DNA of 64,000 nucleotides from Candidatus Omnitrophota bacterium (GCA_029564765.1 JAKQPK010000004.1:27716-91715); one strand, 5' to 3'. Shown: positions 35,374 through 57,804, numbered from the stretch's first letter. Notes: generated by a model from the sequence alone, not told the origin. Program-made: numbers and translations.

Positions 35374-35426
35374 TTACTAATTCCCGATATAATGAATTGG
35401 GTCATTTCCATTCTCAGTTACTAATT
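35374..35426 (+). promoter_or_regulatory. two copies of TTACTAATT (35374-35382 and 35418-35426) flanking a TATAAT, upstream of pstS
   Basis: Exact 9-nt direct repeat 44 nt apart. Candidate regulator-binding sites. Confidence 0.3.
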
Positions 35427-35442
35427 GAAAGAATTTCGTCAA

Positions 35443-36305: not shown

Positions 36306-36309
36306 TAAT

Positions 36310-39507: not shown

Positions 39508-39516
39508 GGAGGCATC

Positions 39517-40200
39517 ATGCAAAGACATTTTGACGAAGATCTACGTAATTTGAACGCGAACATCATTAAAATGGCATCATTAGCAGAAGATGCCATTCAG
39601 AACGCCACGCGGGCGCTTAAAGACCAAGACCCGGCTTTGGCGCGTACTGTCATAAACAATGACCAACAGATCGATGAAATGGAGCTCTTCATTGAAGAGC
39701 AAGCGATCGACCTCTTGGCCCGTATGCAGCCAATGGCCAGCGACCTTCGTTTTATAACGACAGGAATGAAGATCAACGCGGAACTTGAACGTATCGCGGA
39801 TCTTGCTGTCAATATCGCCCATCGCGTCCTTGAGCTTTCGGGGATGCCGCATTTGAAGCCATTGGTCGATATCCCAAAACTTTCGGCACTGACCTCAAGC
39901 ATGGTCAAGAACGCGATCGATGCGTTCGTAAATCATGATGAAAGTATCGCGCGCAAGGTCATCCTTTCTGATTCTGAGGTCGACCAATTGAATAATGTTA
40001 TTCGTCAAGAGCTGGTCAATGACTACATGATCAAAGACAGCAAGACAGTGACCCGCGCCGTGCCTTTGCTTTTGATCGCGCGACACTTGGAAAGGATCGG
40101 CGATCACGCGACGAATATTGCGGAAGATGTCATTTATATGGTCCACGCCAAGATCGTGAAGCACCATCCTGAAAAGTTAGACGACGGACAATCCATTTAA
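39517..40200 (+). CDS. phoU: phosphate signaling complex protein PhoU
   Basis: Two PhoU repeats containing the conserved ExxxD-type motif (ELERIADLAVNIA, ERIGDHATNIAEDVIYM). Confidence 0.9.
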   Translation: MQRHFDEDLRNLNANIIKMASLAEDAIQNATRALKDQDPALARTVINNDQQIDEMELFIEEQAIDLLARMQPMASDLRFITTGMKINAELERIADLAVNIAHRVLELSGMPHLKPLVDIPKLSALTSSMVKNAIDAFVNHDESIARKVILSDSEVDQLNNVIRQELVNDYMIKDSKTVTRAVPLLLIARHLERIGDHATNIAEDVIYMVHAKIVKHHPEKLDDGQSI

Positions 40201-40212
40201 CGCGGAGGATCC

Positions 40213-41763
40213 ATGCCCACTTCTTTAGATCTTCAGGTCAAGCCGTTAGGTAAGAAGGCAGGCTTTGATAACGAAAAATACCTCTGCGAACAAGCCAATG
40301 AGATCCTCGAGCGCGTAAAGCGGTTCGATAACAAGCTTTATCTTGAGTTTGGCGGAAAGCTTTTGTTTGATTATCACGCTTCTCGTGTCTTACCGGGTTT
40401 TGACCCAAACGTCAAGATCAAACTCCTCAAGCGTCTTGAAAATGACGCGGACATTATCTTGTGTATCCACGCGGGCGATATTGAGCGACGAAAGATCCGC
40501 GCGGATTTTGGGATCACTTATGATGTCGACGCGTTAAAGCTGATCGATGACCTTAAGGACTGGGGGATCGATATCTGCGCGGTCGTGATCACTCGCTTCA
40601 ATCAACAACCTGCCGCGACCATTTTTAAGAACAAGCTTGAACGATTGGGGGTACGTGTTTACACGCACGCCTTCACGAAAGGATATCCGACGAATGTTGA
40701 CCTGATCGTTAGCGAAGAAGGTTACGGCGCGAATGAATATATCTCAACGACCAAGCGCCTTGTGATCGTGACCGGCCCAGGGCCGGGCAGCGGCAAACTT
40801 GCCACGTGCCTCTCACAGCTTTATCATGAACATAAACAAGGGATCAACGCGGGCTACGCGAAATTTGAAACATTCCCAATTTGGAGCATTCCGCTCAAGC
40901 ATCCCGTTAATGTCGCCTATGAATCCGCAACGGCTGACATCAAGGATTTTAATATGATCGATCCTTTTCATTTGCAAGCGTACGACAAACTGGCCATCAA
41001 TTACAATCGTGATGTGGAAGTATTCCCGGTGGTCAAACGTATCCTTGAAAAGATCACGGGTGATGAAATTTACCATTCGCCAACAGATATGGGAGTCAAT
41101 CGCGCAGGATTCGGCATTACCGATGATCAAGCGGTCCAGGAAGCCGCGTGCCAAGAGATCATCCGACGTTATTTTCGGTATAAATGTGAGTACGCGCTGG
41201 GCCTGGTCGATAAGGAATCCGTTGAGCGAGGAGAGCTGCTGATGAAGGAGATGAACATCAACACCAGTGATCGCAAGGTCGTCGAAGCCGCCCGAACGGC
41301 CGCGGAACAAGCGCAACAACAAGGCAAAGGCAATAAAGGGATATTTTGCGGGGCAGCTATCGAACTGGCCGATGGCCGTATCATCACGGGCAAGAATTCC
41401 TCGCTCATGCACGCGGCATCAAGCCTGATCTTAAACGCGCTCAAGGAATTGGCCGATGTCCCTGATAAGATCCCGCTATTGTCCAAAACATCCATTGACT
41501 CGATATCGAACCTGAAAAAAGATATTTTAAAGATGAAAACATTAAGCCTTGATCTAGATGAAGCCTTGATCAGCTTAAGTATTAGCGCGACAACAAGCCC
41601 TGTTTCACAACTGGCCTTAGAAAAGATCAGTGAATTACGTGGCTGCGAGATGCACATGACCCATATCCCAACGCCAGGGGACGAAGCTGGCTTACGCCGG
41701 TTAGGGATCAATCTGACAACAGATCCAAACCTATCGTCCAGCAGCCTCTGTGACTATTCTTAA
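40213..41763 (+). CDS. UPF0371/DUF1846-like protein of unknown function
   Basis: N-terminal FDNEKYL...LYLEFGGKLLFDYHASRVLPGFDPNVK resembles the UPF0371 family. Starts 13 nt after phoU. Confidence 0.5.
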   Translation: MPTSLDLQVKPLGKKAGFDNEKYLCEQANEILERVKRFDNKLYLEFGGKLLFDYHASRVLPGFDPNVKIKLLKRLENDADIILCIHAGDIERRKIRADFGITYDVDALKLIDDLKDWGIDICAVVITRFNQQPAATIFKNKLERLGVRVYTHAFTKGYPTNVDLIVSEEGYGANEYISTTKRLVIVTGPGPGSGKLATCLSQLYHEHKQGINAGYAKFETFPIWSIPLKHPVNVAYESATADIKDFNMIDPFHLQAYDKLAINYNRDVEVFPVVKRILEKITGDEIYHSPTDMGVNRAGFGITDDQAVQEAACQEIIRRYFRYKCEYALGLVDKESVERGELLMKEMNINTSDRKVVEAARTAAEQAQQQGKGNKGIFCGAAIELADGRIITGKNSSLMHAASSLILNALKELADVPDKIPLLSKTSIDSISNLKKDILKMKTLSLDLDEALISLSISATTSPVSQLALEKISELRGCEMHMTHIPTPGDEAGLRRLGINLTTDPNLSSSSLCDYS

Positions 41764-41764
41764 A

Positions 41765-42553
41765 ATGCGCAAAAGAATATTTTTATCCATACGCTCCTTT
41801 CTTTTTCTTTCGCTCTGCCTGGTGTTTTACGCATGCAGCCCCTCAAAACCAACAACGCCAAGTGTCATCTTTCAATCTTCTGTTATGGACGCGCTTTCTC
41901 AAGGTGTCTTTGAGGGGGATCTAACCTGCGCAGAGCTTTTGCAGCAAGGAGATTTTGGCCTTGGCACCTTCAATGACCTTGACGGCGAAATGATCGTTCT
42001 GGATGGCCAAGTCTATCAAGTCAAATCTGACGGGAGCGTCCTGAAGCCAGACCCATCAACACAACTGCCTTTCGCGACCGTGACATTCTTTAGGCCTGAT
42101 CAGAAGATCTCCTTGGATAAAGAACTGAGCTACGCTCAAATAAAAGACCTTTTGGATGCCGCTTTGCCGTTTAAGAATATCTTTTATGCTATCCGTATCG
42201 ACGGAAAATTCTCCCAGGTTACTGTGCGCAGTGTTCCTCCGCAGTGGAAGCCTTATCCCGATCTCGCTCAAGCCATAAGCGAACAAAGAATATTCCAGAA
42301 AAATGATCTTGCCGGGACCATCATCGGTTTTTGGTTCCCTCATTACGCGAAAAATATCAATGCCACCGGATATCATTTTCATTTCATTGATCGAACGCGA
42401 ACATTCGCCGGCCACTTACTGGACGCGCGATTGATATCCGCAACAGCATCGATCCAAAGCGTTTACAAACTGAATATTGCGTTACCAAAAACAGCGAACT
42501 TTGATAGTACCGACCTAACACAAGAACAACACGTCATAATACCTGAAAAATAG
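41765..42553 (+). CDS. alpha-acetolactate decarboxylase family protein with signal/lipoprotein peptide
   Basis: GDFGLGTFNDLDGEMIVLDGQVYQ and IRIDGKFSQVTVRSVP...TGYHFHFI align closely with ALDC. Hydrophobic N-terminus ends in a Cys. Confidence 0.8.
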   Translation: MRKRIFLSIRSFLFLSLCLVFYACSPSKPTTPSVIFQSSVMDALSQGVFEGDLTCAELLQQGDFGLGTFNDLDGEMIVLDGQVYQVKSDGSVLKPDPSTQLPFATVTFFRPDQKISLDKELSYAQIKDLLDAALPFKNIFYAIRIDGKFSQVTVRSVPPQWKPYPDLAQAISEQRIFQKNDLAGTIIGFWFPHYAKNINATGYHFHFIDRTRTFAGHLLDARLISATASIQSVYKLNIALPKTANFDSTDLTQEQHVIIPEK

Positions 42554-42556
42554 AAT

Positions 42557-43252
42557 ATGGATGATCACGCGGTCATTGCTGGGTCGGTCACGATCCGGCC
42601 TTATCATACGAGCGATCGTGACGCGCTACGGCGTATAAGCTGCGCGACAGCTTTTTTGGGCCTGCCCTTATCATTATTCGTTGATGATGATGTCATCGTC
42701 GCGGATATCCTGACGCGATACTACACGGACTTCGAACCGCGATCTTGCTTTGTTGCTGTCGTTGGGAATACCGTTGTTGGCTATATCATTGGATCAACGG
42801 ACACGAAAAAGGCTCGGCAGATCTTTATGCGGCAGATCATGATGCCCGCATTATGGCGCGCGGTCAGAAAAGGCATTTTCCTTAAGAAAAATGCCTTGCG
42901 ATTCCTTAGGCATCTTATGGTCAGCGTGATCAAAGGTGAATTCCGCGATCCGGATTTCTCGCGCCTCTATCCCGCGACCTTGCATATCAACATTGACAAG
43001 AACTTTCATCGTCATCGCATAGGGTCTAAATTGATCGCGCGATATCTGGAGTATCTGCAAAACGATCATATTGCCGGAGTGCATTTGGGCACGATCTCTT
43101 CAAGCGCTAAGGAATTTTTTATCAAGAATGGTTTTTCACTTTTATATAGCGGCCGTCGCTCATATTTATGCTATATTACCAAAGACATCGCGAACTATTA
43201 TATTCTAGGAAAAAACTCTCAGAACAAGTTAACGTATGACATTCTTCCGTAA
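42557..43252 (+). CDS. GNAT family N-acetyltransferase
   Basis: Acetyl-CoA-binding-like RHRIGSKLIARYLEY region. Confidence 0.55.
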   Translation: MDDHAVIAGSVTIRPYHTSDRDALRRISCATAFLGLPLSLFVDDDVIVADILTRYYTDFEPRSCFVAVVGNTVVGYIIGSTDTKKARQIFMRQIMMPALWRAVRKGIFLKKNALRFLRHLMVSVIKGEFRDPDFSRLYPATLHINIDKNFHRHRIGSKLIARYLEYLQNDHIAGVHLGTISSSAKEFFIKNGFSLLYSGRRSYLCYITKDIANYYILGKNSQNKLTYDILP

Positions 43253-44651
43253 GCTACGATTCAGTATCCTGATCAGCATCTTTTTAGTGCTTTTATTCAT
43301 TGCGCTAGGGGATTATCTTCGCCATCCTTCACGCCAGGCCTGGATCTCGACAACTCCCGCTCCAAGCACGGATCGCATCCTCATCCTTGCTCCTCATCCG
43401 GATGATGAAGTTTTAGGGTGCGCTGGCATCATTCAGCGCGCGCGACGTAACGGTGTCCCGGTGAAGATCGTTTTCTTAACCTATGGGGACAATAATCAAT
43501 GGTCCTTTCTTGTTTACCGAAAACACTTTGTCTTAATGCCCAAGGCCGTCCGCCTTATGGGTGAGATGCGCCGTCAGGAGGGAATTGAAGCAGGCAAGAT
43601 CTTAGGTGTTGATGAGCAAGACCTCATTTTTCTTGGCTACCCGGATTTTAAGACATTGAACATCTGGTATACCAATTGGGGTCAAAGTTCGCCGATCAAA
43701 AGCATGTTAACCCATGTTCGCGCTGTTCCATATCAAACAGCTTTCCGTCCCGGGGCTGAATATAAGGGCGAAGATATCTTAGAAGACCTAAAGTCGATCA
43801 TTCGTGATTTTAAACCAACAAAGATCTTTGTTTCTCATCCCGCGGACCATAATCCAGACCATCGATCCTTATACTTATTCACAAAAGTCGCGCTGTTCGA
43901 TCTTGAGAATGAGCTACGCCCAGCACTGAACCCCTATCTGATCCATTATAAGCATTGGCCGCGGCCTGCTGGTTATTATCCGCAAAGCAAGTTAGATCCA
44001 CCTCAAGCGCTTGCGGATGAAATCTCCTGGAGATCGATCACCCTGACATCTGATGAGATCGCGATCAAGCATTTGGCTATTCAAAAGCATCATTCCCAGT
44101 TCATCTCAAGCCCTGGATATCTTTTATCCTTCGTCAGGTCCCCGGAATTATTCGGTGATTTTCCAGATATCATCGTGAATAAAGATGCTTCCGGCCGAAC
44201 ACTGACCAAGGACAGGGAAGATGATCTGCGCCTTCCTCCTGAAGAGCTTGAGGATGAAGAGATCGCCTCCTTCGTTGGCATTGAAAAACGGTCCGTCTTC
44301 CTTGAAAATGATTGCCTCGTGATCACCTTGGCCCTTTCAAGGCCTTTAGGAAAGACCGTTGGCCTATCCCTTTTTACGTTTGGATATAAAAAAGATGTGC
44401 CGTTCAAGGATATGCCGAAGATCCGCATCCGCTTTGGAACACTGTGGCACAAGGTCTTTGACCAGCGCAAACAGATCAAAGGAAAAGGTGTTGTCATCAA
44501 GAGGAGCGCAAAAAAGATAACCGTTCGCATCCCGCTTGACTTATTAGGAAAACCTGAGAAGATATTCACAAGCGCCAATACGTATCTCGGCGCTGTTCCG
44601 CTCGATTGGGTGTCATGGCGTATTCTCGATCTGTCAGGGCAAAAACCATAA
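43236..44651 (+). CDS. PIG-L/LmbE family de-N-acetylase with N-terminal TM anchor and C-terminal extension
   Basis: LILAPHPDDEVLGCAG motif. About 200-aa extra C-terminal domain of unknown function. Confidence 0.7.
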   Translation: MTFFRKLRFSILISIFLVLLFIALGDYLRHPSRQAWISTTPAPSTDRILILAPHPDDEVLGCAGIIQRARRNGVPVKIVFLTYGDNNQWSFLVYRKHFVLMPKAVRLMGEMRRQEGIEAGKILGVDEQDLIFLGYPDFKTLNIWYTNWGQSSPIKSMLTHVRAVPYQTAFRPGAEYKGEDILEDLKSIIRDFKPTKIFVSHPADHNPDHRSLYLFTKVALFDLENELRPALNPYLIHYKHWPRPAGYYPQSKLDPPQALADEISWRSITLTSDEIAIKHLAIQKHHSQFISSPGYLLSFVRSPELFGDFPDIIVNKDASGRTLTKDREDDLRLPPEELEDEEIASFVGIEKRSVFLENDCLVITLALSRPLGKTVGLSLFTFGYKKDVPFKDMPKIRIRFGTLWHKVFDQRKQIKGKGVVIKRSAKKITVRIPLDLLGKPEKIFTSANTYLGAVPLDWVSWRILDLSGQKP

Positions 44652-44661
44652 AAGGAGGGAC

Positions 44662-45997
44662 CATGTTGCGTAAAATCGGCATTGGGATCATCAGCAGTTT
44701 TATCATTCTCACGGTCGTTGCAGAGGCAAAGGCAGAGGTAAAATTTAAATGGGGCCCTTATTTACGCGCGCGTTATGAATATTGGAAAAACTGGCGTGAC
44801 ATGGACAACACCCAGCTTGATAACCGTAGTTTCTTCAGGATCAAGACATCCCTCTGGGGACAAGCGGACCTTGATGAAAAATATTCTTTTTATTGCAAAT
44901 TAACGAATGAAACAAAGGCCTATACGTATTTCGCCCCTTCCAGTTCAAAACCCAGCGGAAAGACCGAAAAAGGCCTTCGTTACGATATTAATGAAGTTGT
45001 TTTTGACAATATATATTTTGATTTTAAGAAAGTCCTTGATGCCCCGGTCAACATCCGCTTGGGCCGCCAGGATCTTTTTGGGTATGGAGAGAACTTTCTT
45101 TTAGCGGACGGTACTCCCAACGACGGTTCCCGCACGTATTATTTTAACGCGATGAAAACGTCGTGGTCGATCAATGAGCGCAACACCTTTGACTTTATTT
45201 ATATCCGCAATCCAAAAGACGACACCTATTTGCCGATCATCAATGAAGACAAATCCCCCCAAAATTTGAACACGACCGATGAAGAAGGCTATGTTGGCTA
45301 TCTGCGCAATCGATCGATCCAGAATCTCGCGCTCGATGGATATTACATCTACAAACGTGAAGATGCAGATGGCGGCGTAGGGTACCAGTCCCAAAAAGGG
45401 ATCATTAACACGATCGGTTCTTTTGCCCGCTATGATTTTCCTACCTGGGCCATTAAAGGGCAGGCCGCATATCAGTTTGGTGATTATGGCGCGAATAGCC
45501 GTGAAGCCCTGGGTGGATATGGGTATGTTGAAAAGAACTTCAAGGATATGCGCTGGACACCAACAGCGAAAGCAGGATTTATCTATCTTTCTGGTAATAA
45601 AGCAGGAACAGATAAGAATGAAGCCTGGGATCCTTTATTCTCTCGCTATCCATGGTTTTCGGAGCTCTACAGTTTGAGCATGGCAGCGGAAACAGGCATT
45701 GTTGACTACTGGACGAACATTTCCGCTTATTGCGCGGAATTCGCGGTTAAACCAACAGAAAAAACAAAGCTTTCTTTAAACTACTATTTTCTGCGTGCCA
45801 ATGAGCAAGTGGCCGCGAACACGATCTTTTCCGGCAGAGGGAAGACGCGAGGGCATCTTCCTGAGGTGCGTGTCGATTACGCTTTGACAAAATCAATATC
45901 AATGTATGTTCTCGCTGAATATCTGATCCCTGGGAACTTTTACAAGAATGATGACCCAGGATTATTTGTTCGTACGGAATTCCAGATCAAATTCTAA
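44662..45997 (+). CDS. outer-membrane beta-barrel protein, alginate-export (AlgE)-like porin
   Basis: AAGGAGGG RBS, signal peptide, alternating beta-strand pattern, C-terminal ...EFQIKF with terminal Phe. Confidence 0.5.
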
Positions 45998-46031: not shown

Positions 46032-46364
46032 ATGAAAAAAAGCGTCAACACCATCCGCGGGATCGCGCTGGATCTTTCAAGCCTCGTTTCTTATCAGAAA
46101 AATTCTGTGATCAGCCGTGAGATCATCAAAGGCGAAAGTGGAACAGTAACGCTTTTCGCCTTTGACAAAAATGAAGGATTAAGCGAGCACACAGCTCCGT
46201 TCGATGCGATGGTCATTGTTTTGGACGGCTCCGTAAAGATCTGCATCAGCAAAAAACCGCATCTTCTTAAAAAAGGTCAGTCCATTATTATGCCGGCGCA
46301 TCAACCGCACAGCCTTAAAGCTATCAAACGATTTAAAATGTTATTGATTCTCATAAAAAAATAA
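46032..46364 (+). CDS. cupin domain protein
   Basis: Cupin motifs G(X)5HXH-like (SEHTAPFDAMVIVLDGS) and PAHQPHSL. TAATG-coupled to the response regulator. Confidence 0.6.
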   Translation: MKKSVNTIRGIALDLSSLVSYQKNSVISREIIKGESGTVTLFAFDKNEGLSEHTAPFDAMVIVLDGSVKICISKKPHLLKKGQSIIMPAHQPHSLKAIKRFKMLLILIKK

Positions 46365-47068
46365 TGTTTTCTTCGCCACAAAAGATCCTCATCGTCGAAG
46401 ACGATCGAAATATATCCAAACTTGTTCGCTATAATCTAGAAAAAGCTGACCTCGAATGCCTGACGTGCATCTGCGGGGAAGAAGCGTTCGAGATACTAGA
46501 TCAAAAACCGATCGATCTGATCATTTTGGATATTATGCTCCCGAAAATGGACGGCCTTTCTGTCTGCCGTGAGATCCGCAACAACGAACGATTAAAGCAT
46601 ATACCGATCGTAATACTCACCGCGAAAGGCGAGGAGATCGATAGGGTCGTCGGCCTTGAGTTGGGCGCGGATGATTATATGGTCAAACCCTTTAGCCCTC
46701 GCGAGCTTGTCTTAAGGGTCAAAGCGATCTTGCGCCGCAAAAAGACCGTTGAAACAAAAAAAGATATCGTGTCGATCGGCGATATTTGCGTGGACATCCC
46801 TCGCCATAAGGCTACGGTCAAAGATAAAGAGATCGAATTGACCGCGATGGAGTTCAAGCTCCTGACAGTGCTCATGGAGCGACGCGGACGCGTTCAGACG
46901 CGCGACACACTGCTTGCGGATGTCTGGGGGATGAGCTCTGAGATCTATACACGCACGATCGATACCCATGTCAAACGCCTTCGGCAAAAGTTAGGCAAGG
47001 CCGGAAAGCGCATTGAGACCATAGTTGGCGTTGGATACAAGATGCGAGATGACATCGATGCGGATTAA
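46364..47068 (+). CDS. OmpR/PhoB-family response regulator (probable PhoB/PhoP of this Pho locus)
   Basis: Receiver domain (ILIVEDD...LDIMLPKMDG) plus winged-helix output domain. Its neighbours are Pho-related genes. Confidence 0.8.
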   Translation: MFSSPQKILIVEDDRNISKLVRYNLEKADLECLTCICGEEAFEILDQKPIDLIILDIMLPKMDGLSVCREIRNNERLKHIPIVILTAKGEEIDRVVGLELGADDYMVKPFSPRELVLRVKAILRRKKTVETKKDIVSIGDICVDIPRHKATVKDKEIELTAMEFKLLTVLMERRGRVQTRDTLLADVWGMSSEIYTRTIDTHVKRLRQKLGKAGKRIETIVGVGYKMRDDIDAD

Positions 47069-48830
47069 GCTGCATTGGAAGCTGACTCTGTTCTTTTGCT
47101 CAGCGGCACTCTTAGGGCTTGTTGCCGGTTACTTTCTTCTAACGACCCCTCTTCAGGATTATCTTGAAAAAAGCCTAAAGAAAAACCTTCACGCCCAGCT
47201 ATCCCTTGGGCGTAAATTTCTTGTCTCCCAAATAGATCTTTTAAGGGACGCGACCCCTTTTGACGCGATCTCTGATGATCTGGGCCGTCAATTGAACGTC
47301 CGGGTCACGATCATTGATAATAGCGGAACCGTATTAGGGGACAGTGATCTTGACCAAGAGAAATTAAGGACCGCTGAGAACCATAGCGATCGCCAAGAGA
47401 TCCAGCAAGCTGCCAAAACGGGTTTCGGCTTTATCAAGCGATACAGCTATACGATCAAGGATTATCTGCTATACGTCGCCATCCCTTTTTCCTATAACGA
47501 AAAAAATGCGTTTTTGCGATTTGCCATCCCGCTTACCGATGTTAGGGCCCTTCAAGAAAAATTCCAGCTAACGATCGCGCTCACACTATTACTCGTTTTT
47601 ATCCTAAGCCTTGCGCTGACTTTCTTGATATCCAGCATTGTTTCACGTCCTCTGTCGCAGATGGCCAACATCGCCAAGGCAATGGCGCAAGGGGATTTTT
47701 CCATAAAGCCGTCCATCTACTCGACCGATGAGATAGGGGACTTGGCTTCTGCCTTGACACATATGTCCGATGAGATCAACAATAAGATCGAACGGATCCG
47801 TCACGAAAGCGCTAAATTAGATGCTGTGCTCTCAAGCATGTTCGAGGGGATCATGGTCGTCAACAGCCGCGGCGAGATCATTTTAATGAACCCATCCTTA
47901 AAAAAGCTGTTCTTTGTGGACACGGAACCTTTAGGCCGCAAGCCGATCGAAGCGATCCGCAACGCGCTTGTCCAACAGGTCACAGATCAAATACTGGGAC
48001 TAAGCCAAAATTTTATCTCTCAAGAAGTCCAGATCACTCATCCCAACGACAAGATTTTGCGCGTCAACGGGACGCCGATCATCAGGGATAATCGGCTTGA
48101 AGGCGCGGTATTGGTTTTCCACGACATTACTGAACTGCGGCGCCTGGAAAGGATCCGCCAAGAGTTCGTCGCCAATGTTTCACATGAATTACGCACACCC
48201 ATCTCCAGCATCAAAGGTTACGCGGAGACCTTACTATCAGGAGCCATCGAAGATAAGGAGAACGCGAAAGATTTCATTAATATTATTTATCAGGACAGTA
48301 ACCGCCTGGCCAGCCTGATCAGCGACCTTTTGGACCTGGCTAAGATCGAATCTGAAAAATTACAAATGGAATTCCTGCCGGTTGAGATCAAGCCCTTAGT
48401 CCTGCGCTGCATCAGTATCCTTAAAAAAACGATCGATGAAAAACAATTAACCGTCTCCTGCGAGATCTCTGAAAAACTGCCTAAGGCCATGGCTGATGAC
48501 GCGCGTTTGTCGCAGGTACTGTTGAACTTATTGGATAATGCTGTCAAATACACTCCTCAAAAAGGAACGATCAGGATCGGCGCGCAAGTAGCCGAGAAAT
48601 ATATCCAGATCGATATTTCTGATACGGGTATCGGCATCCCACAAGAAGATATTCCGCGTATTTTTGAACGATTTTATCGTGTCGACAAAGCCCGCTCGCG
48701 GGAATTAGGCGGCACCGGCCTTGGCCTTTCTATCGCCAAGCACATCGTCCTATCGCACGGCGGCCAGATCTGGGCCCACTCCAAACCCGGCGAAGGAACG
48801 ACCTTTAGCTTCACCATCCCTGAAGCATAA
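47049..48830 (+). CDS. sensor histidine kinase (PhoR-like) with periplasmic sensor, HAMP, PAS and HisKA/HATPase
   Basis: H-box FVANVSHELRTPISSI, N-box LLDNAVKYT and G-boxes DTGIGIP / GGTGLGLSI. Confidence 0.8.
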   Translation: MTSMRIKLHWKLTLFFCSAALLGLVAGYFLLTTPLQDYLEKSLKKNLHAQLSLGRKFLVSQIDLLRDATPFDAISDDLGRQLNVRVTIIDNSGTVLGDSDLDQEKLRTAENHSDRQEIQQAAKTGFGFIKRYSYTIKDYLLYVAIPFSYNEKNAFLRFAIPLTDVRALQEKFQLTIALTLLLVFILSLALTFLISSIVSRPLSQMANIAKAMAQGDFSIKPSIYSTDEIGDLASALTHMSDEINNKIERIRHESAKLDAVLSSMFEGIMVVNSRGEIILMNPSLKKLFFVDTEPLGRKPIEAIRNALVQQVTDQILGLSQNFISQEVQITHPNDKILRVNGTPIIRDNRLEGAVLVFHDITELRRLERIRQEFVANVSHELRTPISSIKGYAETLLSGAIEDKENAKDFINIIYQDSNRLASLISDLLDLAKIESEKLQMEFLPVEIKPLVLRCISILKKTIDEKQLTVSCEISEKLPKAMADDARLSQVLLNLLDNAVKYTPQKGTIRIGAQVAEKYIQIDISDTGIGIPQEDIPRIFERFYRVDKARSRELGGTGLGLSIAKHIVLSHGGQIWAHSKPGEGTTFSFTIPEA

Positions 48831-48852: not shown

Positions 48853-48868
48853 TTCACGCAAAGTTCAC
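48853..48868 (+). promoter_or_regulatory. Pho-box-like direct repeat TTCAC-N6-TTCAC (11-bp periodicity)
   Basis: TTCACgcaaagTTCACacac read directly downstream of phoR and upstream of small ORF, porin and pstS2. Confidence 0.35.
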
Positions 48869-48958: not shown

Positions 48959-49156
48959 ATGCACCAGGAAATCCAGATATTTTCAGCACTGGATCAAGAC
49001 ATATTTATGAGCCAACTACGTTCGCAAATCCATAAACTTAATACAATTATTTTTAATCTGGAAAATCAAAGGACAGATTTCTCATATGCGGCAATGCTCG
49101 TAAAAGAGATCGAAAAGAATTTACGGCGTATCCGCAAAACATGGCTGGAAAACTAA
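48959..49156 (+). CDS. small hypothetical protein (65 aa) with strong SD
   Basis: GAGGAGGTG-6 nt-ATG. Predicted helical, no recognisable motif. Confidence 0.45.
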   Translation: MHQEIQIFSALDQDIFMSQLRSQIHKLNTIIFNLENQRTDFSYAAMLVKEIEKNLRRIRKTWLEN

Positions 49157-49169
49157 ACGGAGGAATTTC

Positions 49170-50468
49170 ATGAAAAAATTATTTATGATCGCAGTGCTTG
49201 CATTGCTGAGCGTATGCGTCATGGCGCCGCAGGCAAAAGCAGGCGAAGTCGACATGCTTATCCAAAAGCTTGTCGAAAAAGGCATCTTGACTCCTGGCGA
49301 AGGAGCCACCTTGATTGTGGAAACCAAGGAAGAGGTTAAAAAACAACTGGCTTCCGGTAAATCCGAAAGCGTACCCTCATGGGTTCAAACCATGAAGCTT
49401 AAAGGTGATTTTCGCTTTCGCTATCAATTTGACAGACACACAAGCACATCGAACGAAAACCGTGCTCGTATGCGCGCTCGTGTCGGCGTTGAAGCAAAAG
49501 CCAATGATAAGATGAAAGTCGGTATTGGAATCGCGACCGGTAAAGTAAATGATCCACGCTCAACGAATATTACCTTAGGTCAGACCGGAAGCAAAGACTC
49601 CACTTTCAATACGAACACCCCAGGCTCATTTAAAAATATTATCTTAGATTATGCCTACGGTGAGTATGCTTTTAACAATAACCTCTCGCTTATAGCTGGT
49701 AAGTTTAGCAATCCATTATGGCGCGTCACAGACCTTCTCTGGGATGGAGACATCAACCCTGAAGGTGTTGCCGTAAACTTAACACACAAATTATCCACAT
49801 CTATAGATCTATTCATGAACAATTTATTGTTCATCTTAGATGAAAATACATCCGTAGAATCAAAATATCCGATGATGGGTGCAATTCAGCCTGGATTTAA
49901 CTACGCGATAAGCGATTCTTTGAAATTAAAAGGTGCTGTCACGGGTTATTTCTTTAGCGGTGTTGAAAAACGTGCATCATTTAGAAACCGCTCAACCAAT
50001 ACACTTAACGGCAGTGTTTATAAGTATAACTATAATTCCGTTAACCCAAGCATGGAATTCAGCATCAAAGAACCGTTTGGCGGCATTGTTCCTTCCGCGT
50101 CTATCTTCAGTGAAGGCGTTTTCAATGTTTCCGAAGATGTTGATAATGCCCGTGGCGGTTTTGCTGCTGGCGTAAAGTTTGGAGCGGAAAGAGTCAGCAA
50201 TAAAGGCGACTGGCAGGCAAGACTGATCTATGGCAAATTAAGCCGTGATGCCTGGCTTGACATCTTCCCGGATTCAGATCGTTACAGCGGAAGAACTAAT
50301 ATGAAAAGTTATGAAGCGATCTTTTCCTATGGGTTAGGAAAGAACACATCGCTTGATTTTGATTATTACTATAGCCAAGACTTGAACAAGGTTGCCACCT
50401 CAAGCTCAGGCCCAGCAGGATATAGGCCGTCCCATATGTTGCAGGTTGACTGGAATCTAAAGTTCTAA
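49170..50468 (+). CDS. outer-membrane porin, candidate phosphate-selective porin
   Basis: Signal peptide, beta-barrel pattern, C-terminal WNLKF. Immediately precedes pstS2. Confidence 0.5.
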   Translation: MKKLFMIAVLALLSVCVMAPQAKAGEVDMLIQKLVEKGILTPGEGATLIVETKEEVKKQLASGKSESVPSWVQTMKLKGDFRFRYQFDRHTSTSNENRARMRARVGVEAKANDKMKVGIGIATGKVNDPRSTNITLGQTGSKDSTFNTNTPGSFKNIILDYAYGEYAFNNNLSLIAGKFSNPLWRVTDLLWDGDINPEGVAVNLTHKLSTSIDLFMNNLLFILDENTSVESKYPMMGAIQPGFNYAISDSLKLKGAVTGYFFSGVEKRASFRNRSTNTLNGSVYKYNYNSVNPSMEFSIKEPFGGIVPSASIFSEGVFNVSEDVDNARGGFAAGVKFGAERVSNKGDWQARLIYGKLSRDAWLDIFPDSDRYSGRTNMKSYEAIFSYGLGKNTSLDFDYYYSQDLNKVATSSSGPAGYRPSHMLQVDWNLKF

Positions 50469-50486: not shown

Positions 50487-51299
50487 ATGAAAACTCTTAA
50501 TAAAATTCTGCTTACCGGGCTTGCGGTCTTGAGTATCGCAATGCCTGCTTTTGCAGAAAAGATCGTTGTTACGGGCTCAACAACAGTTTTACCGCTTTCA
50601 CAAAAAGCCGCGGAAGTTTTTATGCAAAACAATCCTAATGCGGATATTTCTATACGCGGCGGGGGTTCCGGTGTTGGGATAGCTTCCATCATTGATGGTA
50701 GTTGTGATATTGCTAATTCATCACGACCGATCAGAGATGTTGAGCTTCAAAAAGGTGCTTCCAACGGCCGCGACATCAAGGCACACATTGTTGCTATGGA
50801 TGGGATCGCGATCGTTGTCCACCCTTCGAACGGGATCAGCGCTTTGACCAAATCCCAAGTAAGAGATATTTATACCGGGAAAATTTCCAATTGGTCTCAA
50901 GTTGGAGGAAAAAACGAAAAGATCGTCGCCATCTCTCGTGATACCTCCAGCGGAACCTTTGAAGCGTTCATGGAGCTTGTTTTGGATAAGCAAAAGGTGC
51001 GTCCTGATGCCATTATGCAAGCATCAAATCAGGCGATCGCAACAACTGTCGCACGTACGCCAAATGCGATCGGCTACGTTGGACTTGGCTTTCTTTCCGG
51101 TGATATTAAAGCGGTTACAATCGACGGTGTAATGCCTTCCAAGGAAACGGTTTTACTTGGGAAATATAAGGTTGGACGTCCGCTGTTCATGTATACCAAC
51201 GGCGCTCCTAAAGGCCTCGCTAAAGATTATCTTGACTTCATCAAAAGTGCTCAAGGACAAAGCATTGCTGATGAGTTAGGGTATGTTGGATTAAAATAA
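50487..51299 (+). CDS. pstS: phosphate ABC transporter substrate-binding protein, second copy
   Basis: TGSTTVLPLSQKAAEVF...GGGSGVGIASIIDGSCDIANSSR. Confidence 0.85.
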   Translation: MKTLNKILLTGLAVLSIAMPAFAEKIVVTGSTTVLPLSQKAAEVFMQNNPNADISIRGGGSGVGIASIIDGSCDIANSSRPIRDVELQKGASNGRDIKAHIVAMDGIAIVVHPSNGISALTKSQVRDIYTGKISNWSQVGGKNEKIVAISRDTSSGTFEAFMELVLDKQKVRPDAIMQASNQAIATTVARTPNAIGYVGLGFLSGDIKAVTIDGVMPSKETVLLGKYKVGRPLFMYTNGAPKGLAKDYLDFIKSAQGQSIADELGYVGLK

Positions 51300-51381: not shown

Positions 51382-52272
51382 ATGTCATTATTTCGTCTTA
51401 AAGAAAAGATCATACAAGGCGTTTTTACTGTTTTGGCATTCTCATCATTGCTTTTTCTTGTTGGGATCATCTTTGTCCTCTTTAAAGAAGGCCTTCCAAT
51501 CTTTAAGGATGTTAAAATATCAGATTTCTTATTTGGCCGTTTTTGGTATCCTACATACGAACCTCCAGAGTTCGGCGTCTTGCCATTGATCGTTGGATCA
51601 TTCTATGTTTCCTTAGGGGCAATGTTCGTGTGTGTTCCTCTGGGTATCGGAAGCGCTCTTTATATCAATGAGATGGCAAGCTACAAGCAAAAAGCTATCT
51701 TGAAGCCTCTCATTGAGATCCTGGCAAGCGTTCCATCTATTATCTATGGCTTCTTTGCTATGGCTATCCTCGCGCCATTCTTGCAGAAAACGTTCAACAT
51801 CCCTATCGGTCTTTGCACCCTGAACGCAAGTATTATTTTAGGGGTAATGGCAACGCCGACGGTTTGTAGCCTTGCTGAAGATGCCCTCAGCTATGTCCCG
51901 CGCTCCTTTCGCGAAGCTTCTTTTGCCGTAGGCGCGACCCGCTGGCAAACATTGATCAAGGTTGTTATTCCAGCCGCAGGATCAGGGATATCGACTGCTG
52001 TGATCCTTGGTATGAGCCGCGCGATCGGAGAAACCATGACCGTCTTGATGGCCGCTGGAGGAGCGGCGATCATTCCCACATCTATTTTTGATCCTGTCCG
52101 CCCAATGACCGCCGCCATTGCCGCGGAAATGGGAGAAGCTCCTGTAGGGGGAGACCATTATCATGCGCTTTTTGCCATTGCATTGGCTTTATTTTTAATA
52201 ACATTCTTTTTTAATATTCTTGCGGAGATCATTAGCCGGCGTTTTCGCATCAAATTGGGATTATCCGGATGA
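51382..52272 (+). CDS. pstC: phosphate ABC transporter permease PstC, second copy
   Basis: Paralogous to 36310-37179. Confidence 0.85.
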   Translation: MSLFRLKEKIIQGVFTVLAFSSLLFLVGIIFVLFKEGLPIFKDVKISDFLFGRFWYPTYEPPEFGVLPLIVGSFYVSLGAMFVCVPLGIGSALYINEMASYKQKAILKPLIEILASVPSIIYGFFAMAILAPFLQKTFNIPIGLCTLNASIILGVMATPTVCSLAEDALSYVPRSFREASFAVGATRWQTLIKVVIPAAGSGISTAVILGMSRAIGETMTVLMAAGGAAIIPTSIFDPVRPMTAAIAAEMGEAPVGGDHYHALFAIALALFLITFFFNILAEIISRRFRIKLGLSG

Positions 52273-53120
52273 ACCAAAACACTATTCAAAAGATTGGCTT
52301 TGGATTCCTATCGTTTTCTGTTATCGCAACGATCTCATTCTTGTTCATTATTATTTTCTTTATCGCAGCCCGTGGTATCCGTGTTATTTCCTGGGAGTTC
52401 TTAACAGCCGGCCCTCGCGATGGTATGACAGCAGGCGGAGTCGCGCCAGCCATCGTTGGAACTTTTTATTTAACCCTGGGAGCGATTATTTTCGCTCTGC
52501 CCTTAGGCATCGCATGTGCGATCTATCTTTGTGAATATTCGCCTAAGGGGGCCGTTGTCAACATTATCCGCTTAAGTATTAACAATTTAGCCGGCGTCCC
52601 TTCTGTTGTCTTCGGGCTTTTTGGCTTAGCAGTGTTCGTAAAATTCTTCAACTTTGGCGCCTCTATTCTTTCGGGAAGTTTAAGCCTTGGTATTTTGGTC
52701 TTACCGCTCATTATTTCAGCAACTCAGGAAGCATTGCTGGCGATCCCGCATTCAATACGTGAAGCCTCCATGGCCTTAGGTGCGACAAAATGGCAAACCA
52801 TTAAAAAGATTGTTTTGCCTGCAGCCGTTCCAGGAATCTTAACAGGAACGATCCTTAGTATCGGCCGTGTCGCAGGAGAGACCGCTCCTATTTTATTTAC
52901 TGCGGCAGCATTTTATTTAAAAGGATACCCGAAATCCGTTTTTTCAGAGGTCATGGCCCTTCCTTACCACATCTACGCTCTGATGACAGAAGGCGTTTAT
53001 CCTGAAAAACAAACAGCGATCGCCTATGGCTGCAGTTTTATCTTGCTGGTCTTGGTTCTTTTGGTTTCCGGCCTGGCGATCTTTATCCGTCAACGACAGA
53101 GGAGTTATTATCATGGATAA
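52269..53120 (+). CDS. pstA: phosphate ABC transporter permease PstA, second copy
   Basis: Paralogous to 37176-38021. Confidence 0.85.
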
Positions 53121-53877
53121 TCTACCGATCAAAATGCGCGCGCATGGCGTCGACTTTTTTTACGGCCAACACCACGCCCTAAAGAACATCAATCTCGATA
53201 TCGCCAAAAACCATGTCACGGCGATCATCGGGCCATCGGGATGTGGAAAATCAACCTTTATCCGCCTTTTAAACCGTATGAATGAAATGGTGCCCAACAC
53301 GACCTTAACGGGCAAGATCTATCTTGATTGCCTGGATATTTTAAGCCCGTGCATCGATCCGGCGGAAGTCCGACGTCGCGTCGGCATGGTCTTTCAAAAA
53401 CCAAATCCGTTTCCAAAAAATATCTTTGAAAATATCAGCTACGGTCTTGAAGTCAACGGGATCAAGAACAAACAGCTTATTGAAGATCGTGTCGTCGAGT
53501 CGTTAAAAAAATCTGCTATTTGGGATGAGGTCAAGGATAGACTGCATGATAGCGCGCTAAGGCTTTCCGGGGGTCAGCAGCAGCGTCTTTGCATCGCGCG
53601 TTGTCTGGCGATCCAGCCGGAAGTCCTCTTGTTCGATGAGCCGTGCGCCAGCTTGGATCCGATCTCAACACGCAAGATCGAAGAACTCATTTTAGAGCTA
53701 AAAAAAGACTACACGATTGCCATTGTCACGCACAACATGCAACAGGCCGCGCGTATTTCAGATTATACGGGATTTTTTCTTTTGGGGGACCTGATCGAAT
53801 TTGATAAAACAGAAAAGATCTTTAAAGCGCCGCATGACTCTCGAACGGAAGACTATATTACGGGAAGGTTCGGATAA
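53113..53877 (+). CDS. pstB: phosphate ABC transporter ATPase PstB, fully canonical
   Basis: [45 protein letters not shown] and [13 protein letters not shown] are all consensus. Start moved to MDNLPIK after GAGGAG. Confidence 0.85.
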
Positions 53878-53878
53878 A

Positions 53879-54268
53879 ATGAAAAATATTCTTTTTGTCT
53901 GCATTGAGAATTCTTGCCGAAGTCAGATCGCCGAAGGTTTTGCAAAAATGATGGCAGGGGACTTATTTAACGTCTATAGCGCTGGCTCGCGGCCATCGGG
54001 AGTTGTCAATCCAACTGCCATAAATGTTATGCAAGAGATTGGTATTGATATTTCTAAGAATGACTCTAAAGGCTTTGATGATCTTCCTGTTAAAAAATTT
54101 GACCGTGTCATAACGCTTGGATGCGGTGATCAATGTCCTTTTGTCCCAGCAGACGTCCATATAGATTGGAAAATACCTGACCCTAAAGGGCACGACCTGG
54201 AATTCTTTCGCTCTGTGCGTGATCTGATCAAGCAACACGTCCAACAGCTGATCCAAGAATTAACATAG
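53879..54268 (+). CDS. arsC: thioredoxin-coupled arsenate reductase / LMW-PTP family protein
   Basis: MKNILFVCIENSCRSQIAEG (CX5R P-loop) and downstream GCGDQCPF cysteine pair as in Bacillus-type ArsC. Confidence 0.7.
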   Translation: MKNILFVCIENSCRSQIAEGFAKMMAGDLFNVYSAGSRPSGVVNPTAINVMQEIGIDISKNDSKGFDDLPVKKFDRVITLGCGDQCPFVPADVHIDWKIPDPKGHDLEFFRSVRDLIKQHVQQLIQELT

Positions 54269-54276
54269 GAGAAAAA

Positions 54277-54942
54277 ATGCAACGACATTTTGATGAAGAA
54301 TTACGTAAACTCAAAGACGGGATCCTCATAATGGCCACGTCTGTTGATCAAGCCATCTTGGAATCGGTTGAGGCGCTAAAAACACTGGATGCGTCCAAGG
54401 CAAAAGACGTGATCACTTGTGATCAAAAGATCGACGAGATGGAAAACACTTTGCAAGAGCATTGCCTGAATTTACTTGCCTGTCAGCAACCTATGGCCAT
54501 TGATCTGCGATTCTTAACCATGGCCATGAGCATCACAACAGACCTTGAGCGCATGGCAGACCTCGCAGTCGATATCGCACAGCGTGTTTGCGAGCTTGCG
54601 GATAAACCACTCTTAAAACCTCTGATCGATATTCCTCAATTAACTGTGATCGCCCAACAAATGATCAAGAAAGCGATCAACGCTTTCTTGAACAATGACG
54701 CGGACCTCGCGCGCAAAGTGATCTTGATGGATAACGAAGCGGATCGCTTGCGCAATCTCATCCAAAAAGAGCTCATCTGTGACTATATGGCGAAAGATCC
54801 AACGACAGCAACCCGCGCTGTTCCGCTGCTGTTGATCGCAAGGCATCTGGAGCGGATCTGCGACCATGCCACAAACATCGCCGAAGATATCATTTATATG
54901 ATAGACGCGAAAGTGGTCAAACATCACCCTGAAAATCTTTAA
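54277..54942 (+). CDS. phoU: PhoU, second copy
   Basis: Paralogous to 39517-40200 and shares the MQRHFDE N-terminus. Confidence 0.9.
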   Translation: MQRHFDEELRKLKDGILIMATSVDQAILESVEALKTLDASKAKDVITCDQKIDEMENTLQEHCLNLLACQQPMAIDLRFLTMAMSITTDLERMADLAVDIAQRVCELADKPLLKPLIDIPQLTVIAQQMIKKAINAFLNNDADLARKVILMDNEADRLRNLIQKELICDYMAKDPTTATRAVPLLLIARHLERICDHATNIAEDIIYMIDAKVVKHHPENL

Positions 54943-55061: not shown

Positions 55062-55526
55062 ATGCGTACGTTTTACTTGGCGATCGTTTTAGGGGTTTGC
55101 GTGGTAGGCTGTAGTTCAAAAAGCAATGAAACAGCGATGCTGCCAACTGATCTGACAGCCGCCAACAAGGAGATCACGATCTCATTGACCGATCCATCGA
55201 TGCCGCCGACAACCGAAATGACGACCACAACAGCAACCGCGACGCTCCCTTCTGTATCACAAATCATGCCAGACACACAAACATCCACAACAGCCTTAGA
55301 GACCCCAACGACAAAGCAGATCCAGCAGGCACTTCAAAACGCTGGCCTATATCAAGGGAAGATCGATGGCGTGATCGGAAGTAAAACAAAAGCCGCTATC
55401 AAAGCGTTCCAGGAGGGAAATGGCCTGACCGCGGACGGCAAGGTCGGCAAGAAAACATGGGCGAAATTAGCACCTTTCTTAAATAATCCCGCTGCGGCAC
55501 CGAGCGCGGTTTTGCCGTCACGTTAA
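55062..55526 (+). CDS. lipoprotein with Thr-rich linker and peptidoglycan-binding (PG_binding_1) domain
   Basis: LGVCVVGCSS lipobox, TTEMTTTTATAT linker, and QQALQNAGLYQGKIDGVIGSKTKAAIKAFQEGNGLTADGKVG. Confidence 0.7.
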   Translation: MRTFYLAIVLGVCVVGCSSKSNETAMLPTDLTAANKEITISLTDPSMPPTTEMTTTTATATLPSVSQIMPDTQTSTTALETPTTKQIQQALQNAGLYQGKIDGVIGSKTKAAIKAFQEGNGLTADGKVGKKTWAKLAPFLNNPAAAPSAVLPSR

Positions 55527-55553
55527 TGAGCGGACAGCTAACGCGTACTTTCA

Positions 55554-55587
55554 AAGCGCCAGAAAAAGTTTCTGGCGCTTTTTCTTT
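55554..55587 (+). terminator. intrinsic terminator, 10-bp stem AAGCGCCAGA/TCTGGCGCTT plus T-tract
   Basis: Read directly after the PG-binding lipoprotein gene. Confidence 0.65.
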
Positions 55588-56928: not shown

Positions 56929-57804
56929 ATGATATCTAAAATAAAAAACTTCATTCAACCTTACAAGATCACCAGCGGAAAAAATTTCCGCCTCAAGGAT
57001 TTTGATCCAGCGGATACAGCGCACCTGCGTTCAAAGGAACAAGCCGAAGAACTCCTTTCTCAAGGCATCAAGCGCGTGCGTGCGCTGCAAGAAAAGCTCT
57101 ACGCCCAGGACCAATGGTCACTGCTGTTGATCTTTCAGGCCATGGATGCCGCGGGCAAAGACGGAGCGATCAAACACGTGATGTCCGGCGTCAACCCTCA
57201 GGGCTGCCAGGTGTTTTCCTTCAAAGAACCGTCCCGCGAAGAACTTGACCACGATTTCTTATGGCGGACAACCTGTCGATTACCCGAGCGCGGCCGTATT
57301 GGCATCTTTAACCGCTCTTACTATGAAGAAGTCCTCACTGTTTGCGTTCATCCCAAGATCTTGCAGAACCAAAAGCTTCCAAAAAAACTTATCACAAAAG
57401 ACATCTTTGGCCAACGCTATGAAAGTATCCGCGATCTTGAAAAACATCTTGCGCGCAATGGCACATCCGTTCACAAATTTTTCCTTAATATTTCCAAGCA
57501 GGAGCAGCACAAACGGCTTTTACGCCGCCTGGATGACCCCTGCCGCAACTGGAAATTTTCCATGGCAGACCTTCGCGAGCGTGAATACTGGGATGCGTAC
57601 ATGAAAGCGTATGAAGAGACGATCAGGAAAACAGCAACAAAGAACGCGCCCTGGTATGTTGTGCCAGCGAATAACAAGTGGTTCTCGCGCCTTGTCATCG
57701 CCGCGGCTGTCATTGACGCGTTAGAGAGCTTGGACCTGGCATTCCCGCAGCTGAACGCGCGGCAGAAGAAAGAACTTTTAAGCGCAAAACGGTCATTAGC
57801 CTAA
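56929..57804 (+). CDS. ppk2: polyphosphate kinase 2 (polyphosphate:nucleotide phosphotransferase)
   Basis: DAAGKDG Walker A-like P-loop, CRLPERGRIGIFNRSYYEEVL and PPK2 lid region. Confidence 0.85.
   Translation: MISKIKNFIQPYKITSGKNFRLKDFDPADTAHLRSKEQAEELLSQGIKRVRALQEKLYAQDQWSLLLIFQAMDAAGKDGAIKHVMSGVNPQGCQVFSFKEPSREELDHDFLWRTTCRLPERGRIGIFNRSYYEEVLTVCVHPKILQNQKLPKKLITKDIFGQRYESIRDLEKHLARNGTSVHKFFLNISKQEQHKRLLRRLDDPCRNWKFSMADLREREYWDAYMKAYEETIRKTATKNAPWYVVPANNKWFSRLVIAAAVIDALESLDLAFPQLNARQKKELLSAKRSLA

Follow-up and report, generated by a model that had tools for sequence, protein, structure and literature searches.

The arsC-like gene and its operon

In a stretch of 64,000 nucleotides from a Candidatus Omnitrophota bacterium (GCA_029564765.1, JAKQPK010000004.1:27716-91715), which was analysed as a whole and is hereafter called the window, a gene for an arsenate-reductase-type (ArsC-like) protein lies inside an operon for phosphate uptake (pst), between pstB and phoU. 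The open reading frame (ORF) is intact on the plus strand and runs from an ATG at 53879-53881 to a TAG at 54266-54268, comprising 129 codons for a protein of 129 residues. It follows the pstB stop codon (TAA, 53875-53877) after a single base (53878), and the phoU ATG at 54277 follows its own stop codon after 8 bases, among which lies an AGGAG ribosome-binding site. A preliminary description of the stretch, generated by a model from the nucleotides alone, had let the ORF begin 2 nt after the stop of "pstB3" and end 8 nt before "phoU2"; both distances agree with the count, the start coordinate being the end of the stop codon plus 2. The two peptides quoted there were likewise found, CIENSCRSQIAEG at residues 8-20 and GCGDQCPF at residues 81-88, and the terms "second pst operon" and "pstB3" are correct, since the first pst operon of the window (35397-40200) already contains two tandem pstB genes (38015-38761 and 38758-39507). 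The latter operon additionally comprises pstS, pstC, pstA and phoU, and is devoid of both a low-molecular-weight phosphatase (LMWP) gene and a porin gene.

The second operon is arranged in the order Porin_5-pstS-pstC-pstA-pstB-arsC-phoU and adjoins a Pho-type two-component system. Its genes for PstS, PstC, PstA and PstB as well as that for PhoU are adjacent on one strand, each exceeding the respective NCBIfam cut-off, and between pstS and phoU no intergenic gap is longer than 82 nt. The first large gene, on the plus strand like all those that follow, encodes an outer-membrane porin of the Porin_5 family (49170-50468; Pfam PF16930, E = 4.8e-48). It is succeeded by pstS, encoding an S-type phosphate-binding protein (50487-51299; TIGR02136, 281.7 bits vs 206.6; best PDB match 4Q8R), the permease genes pstC (51382-52272; TIGR02138, 290.6 bits vs 196.45) and pstA (52269-53120; TIGR00974, 296.1 bits vs 193.45), the ATPase gene pstB, which is the third pstB in the window (53113-53877; TIGR00972, 389.8 bits vs 343.2; start according to the gene call in L001, as the window locus is numbered here), the arsC-like gene (53879-54268), and phoU for the phosphate signalling complex protein with two PhoU domains (54277-54942; TIGR02135, 193.7 bits vs 130.25). 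The two-component pair upstream, also on the plus strand, begins with an OmpR/PhoB-family response regulator (46364-47068), which among the NCBIfam models matches PhoB (TIGR02154) best, its 236 bits falling short of the cut-off of 296, and whose assignment as phoB-like is supported by its position beside a phosphate-sensing histidine kinase of the PnpS/PhoR type (47058-48830; PnpS NF046044, 448.7 bits vs 400; HAMP-PAS-HisKA-HATPase_c architecture). At the other end, a PG_binding_1 gene (55062-55526) is situated between phoU and the first strong terminator-like hairpin, which features a 13-bp stem and a T run (55553-55581, plus strand).

Identity of the encoded protein

Membership of the LMW phosphatase superfamily is evident from the Pfam LMWPc profile (PF01451; E = 8e-23, 81.7 bits vs a cut-off of 23.2, residues 4-124), from the P-loop C8-IENSC-R14-S15 and from the beta-alpha-beta layout of an AlphaFold model. 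The ORF is far beyond chance because of this E-value, of 6213 database homologues at E <= 1e-5 and of the occurrence of the identical protein on 13 contigs. Since the product already bears the NCBI label "arsenate reductase ArsC [Candidatus Omnitrophota bacterium]", it is the placement of the gene that remains to be judged.

Within the superfamily, profile, sequence and structure comparisons all lead to the arsenate reductases. The best two NCBIfam matches are the ArsC equivalog models TIGR02689 (glutaredoxin type; 118.1 bits vs 157.6) and TIGR02691 (thioredoxin type; 107.5 bits vs 174.3), while the model of the tyrosine phosphatase Wzb (NF007520) yields 25.4 bits vs a cut-off of 243 and covers residues 2-79 only. 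A phmmer search of the PDB ranks Synechocystis ArsC (SynArsC) first (E = 7e-28), followed by the ArsC of plasmid pI258, Cg_ArsC1' of Corynebacterium glutamicum, Bacillus subtilis ArsC and Cg_ArsC2, with protein phosphatases appearing only from E ~1e-6. The AlphaFold model, which was built on 21 homologues, reaches a pLDDT (the model's confidence score) of 90.6, and its Foldseek comparison with the PDB returned arsenate reductases exclusively at ranks 1-22 (TM 0.77-0.89); YwlE, Wzb and the eukaryotic LMW protein tyrosine phosphatases (LMW-PTPs) rank below all ArsC structures, with 18-26% identity. In addition to the low Wzb score, the acid motif DPKG lacks the aromatic residues of Wzb/PtpA-type phosphatases and the loop cysteines are invariant. 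Sequence and model together identify a protein of the arsenate-reductase type within the LMW-phosphatase fold and not a tyrosine phosphatase; the alternative raised in the preliminary description, an LMW phosphotyrosine phosphatase acting in Pho signalling, is thus poorly supported.

Catalytic cysteines and subclass

Among 21 close homologues, no variation occurs at C8, N11, S12, C13, R14, S15, C82, D84, C86, P87, D101 or P102. In a larger alignment, 19 pst-embedded copies were set against 60 with arsenic-gene neighbours, and in both groups C8, N11, R14, S15, S34, C82, D84, C86, P87, W97, D101, P102 and R114 are conserved to about 100%, with both Cys82 and Cys86 being present in 19/19 pst-embedded and 60/60 ars-operon sequences. 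The protein hence carries the residues that characterize LMWP-type ArsC enzymes in general, i.e. the nucleophile Cys8 in the P-loop C8-x5-R14-S15, the loop cysteines in C82-G-D84-x-C86-P87 and the general acid in D101-P102. The preliminary description had singled out the second and third cysteines as the feature whose absence would speak for a phosphatase rather than a reductase; the invariance of Cys82 and Cys86 favours ArsC.

The two redox-loop cysteines are spaced C-x3-C within the motif G-C-G-D-x-C-P, and this motif, together with the nucleophilic cysteine, is in register with Cg_ArsC1' (PDB 3T38): the alignment is gapless over 121 residues (BLASTP, 34% identity, E = 4e-29) and places C8/C82/C86 on C88/C162/C166, where the residue numbers of Cg_ArsC1' were counted from the 3T38 alignment and its thioredoxin dependence was taken from the PDB title. 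Both proteins share the cysteine pattern, the DP acid and a Lys in place of an Asp ligand of pI258 ArsC, but Cg_ArsC1' is only 34% identical, has an N-terminal extension (213 residues in all) and a P-loop reading CVHNAGRS instead of CIENSCRS; moreover, its gene resides in an ars cluster, whereas the gene described here resides in a pst operon. SynArsC (PDB 2L17), which is glutaredoxin-coupled, constitutes the best solved match by sequence (44% identity) and shares the P-loop CxxNSCRSQMAEGFAK and the GCG motif. However, SynArsC employs Cys80/Cys82 (C-G-C) with no later cysteine, while the Omnitrophota protein has no equivalent of Cys80 and carries Cys86 where SynArsC has Leu, and it does not reach the score of the corresponding model TIGR02689.

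The thioredoxin-coupled enzymes of Staphylococcus aureus pI258 and B. subtilis (PDB 1LJL and 1JL3) are 41-43% identical to the protein with TM values of 0.85-0.88, and the equivalents of Cys10, Arg16, Ser17 and Asp105 of pI258 ArsC are present along with three of its four K+ ligands, yet the redox loop is two residues shorter than in pI258 ArsC (C-x3-C vs C82-x6-C89). With respect to the K+ site, whose ligands in pI258 ArsC we take to be Asn13, Glu21, Ser36 and Asp65, the check proposed in the preliminary description gave a divided answer: the first three are kept as N11, E19 and S34, while Asp65 is replaced by Lys64. Given the C-x3-C spacing and the Lys at the Asp65 position, the protein is not "Bacillus-type", the class to which that description had turned for comparison; a score sufficient for TIGR02691, the C82-x6-C89 pair and a full K+ site are all absent. 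By its residues, the protein is assigned to the Cg_ArsC1'-like class of three-cysteine enzymes and not to the Bacillus/pI258 class. As regards a possible electron donor, no thioredoxin- or glutaredoxin-like motif (C[GP][PY]C) occurs in window ORFs of at least 70 residues.

Arsenic genes around the homologues

The genomic context of the family was surveyed in 160 homologue loci taken from genomes in GTDB and metagenomes at JGI, supplemented by look-ups of 10 top database matches, whereby neighbouring ORFs were clustered and cluster representatives identified by Pfam and NCBIfam. In this procedure fusion proteins joined small ArsR regulators to the LMWP cluster, so that additional "LMWP" labels are partly ArsR. 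Most homologues at 43-65% identity adjoin at least one gene for Acr3, an aquaporin-type channel of the MIP family, ArsM, ArsP, an ArsR/SmtB regulator, an ArsI-like protein (glyoxalase genes), an ArsN-like protein (GNAT genes) or DUF6428. The neighbouring Acr3 proteins score 408-454 bits vs a cut-off of 283 (TIGR00832) and ArsM 366 bits vs 263, while the ArsR/SmtB regulators feature a CVC motif and exceed the NCBIfam cut-off. In one locus (L092), whose protein is 65% identical to that of the window, the order is arsR-arsP-acr3-arsC. Guilt by association hence argues strongly for a role of the family in arsenic detoxification.

A second LMWP/ArsC-like paralogue is encoded after phoU in L140 (6078-6596), where Asp replaces the nucleophilic Cys (LFLDYDNACRSQ) and the score against ArsC models amounts to only ~64 bits; this paralogue may lack catalytic activity or act in a different way.

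Conservation of the placement

Counting the window locus, 22 distinct loci share the order pstB-arsC-phoU, at 54-100% protein identity (L001, L005, L009, L010, L089-L091, L093, L094, L096, L097, L103, L140, L169-L172 and L174-L178). The assemblies GCA_028710685.1, GCA_015231405.1, GCA_003154195.1 and GCA_023818765.1 are examples of metagenome-assembled genomes with the operon. In nearly all of them Porin_5-pstS-pstC-pstA precedes, the genes 3' of phoU vary, and at the junctions the genes typically overlap or are 1 nt apart. Among these loci are nine of the ten top database matches that were looked up; in the tenth, from a metagenome-assembled genome of Ratteibacteria, arsC is convergent on the phoU end of a pst operon. 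Two of the loci harbour an extra ORF of 131-137 residues between pstB and arsC (L172, 4604-4999; L094, 3215-3625), which has no Pfam match and in L094 a lipoprotein-like N-terminus, and in L103, L174 and L176 both pst operons directly adjoin each other.

Other arrangements link arsC to phosphate genes as well. Four Chloroflexota-like loci (L012, L013, L112 and L121), which form a tight cluster of their own, show pstS-arsC-pstC; further orders are pstSCAB-phoU-arsC-...-phoBR (L154), pstCAB-phoU-MIP-arsC (L156) and, in Aurantimicrobium, phoRB-MIP-arsC (L084), and L138, L029 and L031 have convergent or divergent pst/pho neighbours. In L156, L084 and L138 the pst-linked arsC is accompanied by an aquaporin-type channel, which could let arsenite out. 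With the Omnitrophota group left out, ~12 of roughly 140 loci are pst/pho-adjacent, while we estimate that a random gene would be so in well under 1% of cases. It appears that at least one other phylum inserted arsC independently at another position of the pst operon.

A single origin of the pst-embedded copies was considered and dropped: a first neighbour-joining (NJ) tree based on BLOSUM distances gave a near-clean clade, but a second NJ analysis with 200 bootstraps returned monophyly in 0/200, with the ars-operon copies L092/L095/L098 and L100/L104/L106 interleaving with pst copies. Since the tree is unresolved with 128 alignment columns, neither monophyly nor a single insertion is claimed.

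Regulation of the operon

A scan of the window, in which promoter- and terminator-like sites occur at chance level, revealed none at either the pstB/arsC or the arsC/phoU junction. Upstream of the operon, a direct repeat TTCACG-N5-TTCACA with 11-bp periodicity (48853-48868, plus strand) is located ~35 nt before a TATACT hexamer; we take it to resemble a PhoP/PhoB-type binding site. By count, TTCAC-N6-TTCAC is not significant in the window (3 observed vs 4.2 expected). The direct repeat recurs, as GTTCAC-N5-GTTCACA, in the corresponding interval of L005, L170 and L175, which separates phoR from the small ORF or the porin gene; that three orthologous loci preserve it there is the only reason for which it is kept as a candidate Pho box. 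We infer on good grounds that arsC is co-transcribed with its operon and under Pho control.

The small ORF that precedes the porin gene (48959-49156, plus strand) is conserved and encodes 65 residues. It was called as a gene in both L001 and L005 and has no Pfam match, and L005, L091 and L097 share its motif NLRRIRKT at the C-terminus; the product may be a leader peptide or else a small protein of the Pho regulon.

PstS type and possible arsenate leakage

Among solved structures, both PstS proteins of the window (50487-51299 and 35397-36305) are closest to PBP-1 of Clostridium perfringens (4Q8R/4GD5). PBP-1 carries Ser59 in place of the Asp that forms a low-barrier hydrogen bond in other binding proteins, and it discriminates phosphate from arsenate only ~150- to 200-fold, compared with >500-fold for the other proteins tested, which makes it the least arsenate-discriminating PstS measured (PMC5381212). 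In the PstS of the arsC operon, S31/T33/S79 align to S11/S13/S59 of PBP-1, with Ser79 replacing the Asp of the low-barrier hydrogen bond, and all PstS proteins of arsC-carrying Omnitrophota operons feature [S/A]-S-R at the positions concerned. Given this S-type PstS, leakage of arsenate through these transporters is plausible. The arsC-free pst operon of the window also has an S-type PstS. Low discrimination by PstS was examined as a general explanation for the linkage; it fits all Omnitrophota operons but fails for the Chloroflexota loci, L116 and L029, and was retained as a contributing rationale only.

Interpretation and alternative explanations

The explanation to which we assign a probability of about 0.7 is that a thiol-coupled arsenate reductase is co-expressed with the Pst transporter. 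An ArsC-type reductase inside a pst operon, as the preliminary description had proposed, finds support in the cysteines, in the 22 best structural matches and in the relatives residing in arsR-arsP-acr3-arsC operons, as far as sequence and model reach. The protein would be a cytoplasmic enzyme of the LMW-phosphatase fold, encoded within a Pho-regulated Porin_5-pstSCAB-arsC-phoU operon, and arsC would share a transcript with pstB and phoU and probably be coupled to them in translation. If the mechanism resembles that of the homologues pI258 ArsC and Cg_ArsC1', Cys8 of the CX5R loop would attack arsenate, Cys82 would subsequently attack the Cys8-As adduct with release of arsenite, and Cys86 would resolve the intermediate to yield a Cys82-Cys86 disulfide on a flexible loop. 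Judging from the motif, this disulfide would most likely be reduced by thioredoxin, with glutaredoxin as a possible donor. Synthesis of ArsC would be confined to times at which the high-affinity phosphate transporter is produced and would be proportional to it; hence, reductase capacity would track the route of the arsenate leak during phosphate starvation. For efflux, the arsenite would use an exporter under ArsR control that is encoded elsewhere and that it could itself induce.

Several observations weigh against a co-expressed arsenate reductase. The protein stays below the curated cut-offs of both NCBIfam ArsC equivalog models, and the Lys at the position of Asp65 is shared by 19/19 pst-linked and 53/60 ars-linked homologues. 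His94 is specific to the pst copies, occurring in 17/19 of them where ars-operon copies have Arg or Tyr, and could mark a shifted function. The association with arsenic efflux and regulator genes holds for the homologues at 43-65% identity and not for the window gene itself: neither an arsenite exporter (Acr3, ArsB-like, MIP or ArsP) nor an ArsR homologue lies in the 64-kb window, so that the search for arsB or acr3 advised in the preliminary description yielded neither there, and tblastn of the window with 130 neighbour proteins (Acr3, MIP, ArsM, ArsP, ArsI-like, ArsN-like and DUF6428) gave no match at E <= 1e-3. The missing exporter counts against a reductase because reduction without export would raise toxicity. 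In L101 (1823-5384), the genes ahead of an arsC homologue with 56% identity are PerR/Fur-like, flavodiiron-like and rubrerythrin-like, as judged by eye from N-terminal sequences and not by profile search; such neighbours speak for a link to oxidative stress and not to arsenic or phosphate, a hint that some members may serve thiol-redox functions more generally. Omnitrophota, moreover, are mostly from anoxic habitats, where arsenate is scarce. Finally, PstS is of the Asp type in the Chloroflexota loci and in L116 and L029, which also link arsC to pst, and Pho control is deduced from the operon position together with a motif that is not significant by itself.

Part of this evidence would also suit an ArsC-fold thiol-redox protein with a regulatory role or another substrate, either a sensor of arsenate entry or redox state for PstB-PhoU-PhoR or a reductase of some other oxyanion. 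That arsC closely abuts pstB and phoU, and often overlaps them, suggests production in stoichiometric amounts, and the pst-specific His94, the lack of an exporter in the window, the L101 homologue in its oxidative-stress cluster and the L140 paralogue without nucleophilic Cys beside phoU point in the same direction. On the contrary, the full catalytic set for arsenate reduction is conserved equally to the ars-operon copies, neither a fusion to PstB or PhoU nor a sign of contact with them was found, and we know of no precedent; such a role is considered unlikely. More doubtful still is the idea that the protein does not detoxify as an enzyme on its own but functions within the Pst-PhoU machinery, as a cytoplasmic proofreading or sensing subunit in fixed ratio with PstB and PhoU, which would intercept arsenate at the transporter exit or signal arsenate import to PhoU/PhoR via the redox state of Cys82-Cys86 and thereby adjust uptake or Pho signalling. 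The notion of an LMW protein phosphatase acting on phosphotyrosine or phosphoarginine of PhoR, PhoB, PhoU or PstB, instead of a reductase, could draw on the LMWPc fold, the CX5R(S) P-loop and the DP general-acid motif, on the gene's position directly beside phoU and near phoBR, and on the weak phosphatase activity that LMWP-type ArsC enzymes keep. It is nevertheless very improbable in view of the Wzb score (25 bits vs the cut-off of 243, against 107-118 bits for the ArsC models), the rank of PTP and YwlE structures below all ArsC at 18-26% identity, the invariant Cys82/Cys86 that are absent from phosphatases, the DPKG motif with no aromatic residues after DP, and the close relatives in arsR-arsP-acr3 operons; the aquaporin-type channels in L156, L084 and L138 likewise fit arsenite efflux rather than signalling.

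The remaining question is whether the position carries adaptive meaning at all, as a working arsC could have entered the operon by chance and persisted there by neutral hitch-hiking. The GC content at third codon positions (GC3) of the arsC-like gene, 39% vs 54% for pstB and phoU, would be in line with this, as would the frequent mobility of ars genes and an NJ tree that resolves no single pst clade. Nonetheless, the GC3 value, which was also considered as a mark of recent horizontal transfer, is not outside the values spanned by pstS and the gene for the porin, the same position is occupied in 22 distinct loci down to 54% identity with differing downstream genes, other phyla show insertions elsewhere in pst operons, and the ~12 pst/pho-adjacent loci among roughly 140 others exceed the estimate of well under 1%; chance placement is therefore regarded as the least probable of the explanations.

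Further features of the window

A PPK2-family polyphosphate kinase gene (56929-57804; TIGR03709, 385.9 bits vs 247.2) lies 2 kb downstream of phoU, and the region thus constitutes a phosphorus-homeostasis neighbourhood. Between both pst operons (40213-45997), genes for DUF1846, alpha-acetolactate decarboxylase, a GNAT protein, a PIG-L/LmbE-family deacetylase and an Alginate_exp-type outer-membrane protein are encoded. The PIG-L family includes deacetylases of mycothiol and bacillithiol synthesis, and the PIG-L/LmbE gene could bear on which thiol the cell uses. A complete RND-type efflux system at 28089-33435, comprising an OEP outer-membrane factor, a HlyD-type adaptor and an AcrB-family pump (885 bits), is unrelated to the arsC finding. 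A link via cupins was dropped, as the Cupin_2 protein encoded before phoB in the window and the cupin encoded before the arsC homologue in L173 are unrelated in sequence.

Relation to known systems and significance

Arsenate enters cells since phosphate transporters cannot fully exclude it, a problem which is worst in phosphate starvation. So far, the link between arsenic and phosphate has been encountered in two forms, namely as regulatory cross-talk and as arsenic islands with spare pst genes. The latter are exemplified by aio/ars arsenic islands carrying pst operons (PMC3834237) and by the arsR-sphX-...-acr3-arsH cluster of Nodularia, in which a PstS-like gene is located inside an ars cluster (PMC3610870). 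These clusters and the window locus are alike in linking arsenic genes with phosphate-uptake genes, reflecting the mimicry of phosphate by arsenate; however, in the former the pst or PstS-like genes lie in or beside arsenic-controlled clusters, whereas in the window a lone arsC, its vicinity free of further ars genes, resides inside a pst operon of the Pho type. Regulatory cross-talk is known from marine cyanobacteria, namely Crocosphaera, where phosphate limitation induces arsenic detoxification and efflux genes (arsB; reviewed in PMC11665274). There the logic is the same as proposed for the window locus, in that arsenate detoxification is switched on together with phosphate scavenging, but Crocosphaera relies on cross-talk between separate loci, while in the window the coupling would be achieved through operon membership.

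Full-text searches of open-access papers turned up no account of an arsC located within a pst operon, whether in general or for Omnitrophota, and the conserved operon placement appears to be undescribed; it is not very surprising, because it is consistent with established physiology. The window locus represents the reverse and simpler design, a single reductase gene within a phosphate-starvation operon, by which arsenate detoxification appears to be built into phosphate scavenging. If this is true, the selection exerted by arsenate leaking through Pst would be strong enough to change the make-up of a core nutrient operon, and this also among lineages that are not known to inhabit arsenic-rich sites. 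The arrangement would then also provide a marker for metagenomic study of phosphorus and arsenic cycling, as well as a clean genetic system in which to measure the passage of arsenate through a Pst transporter with a low-discrimination binding protein.

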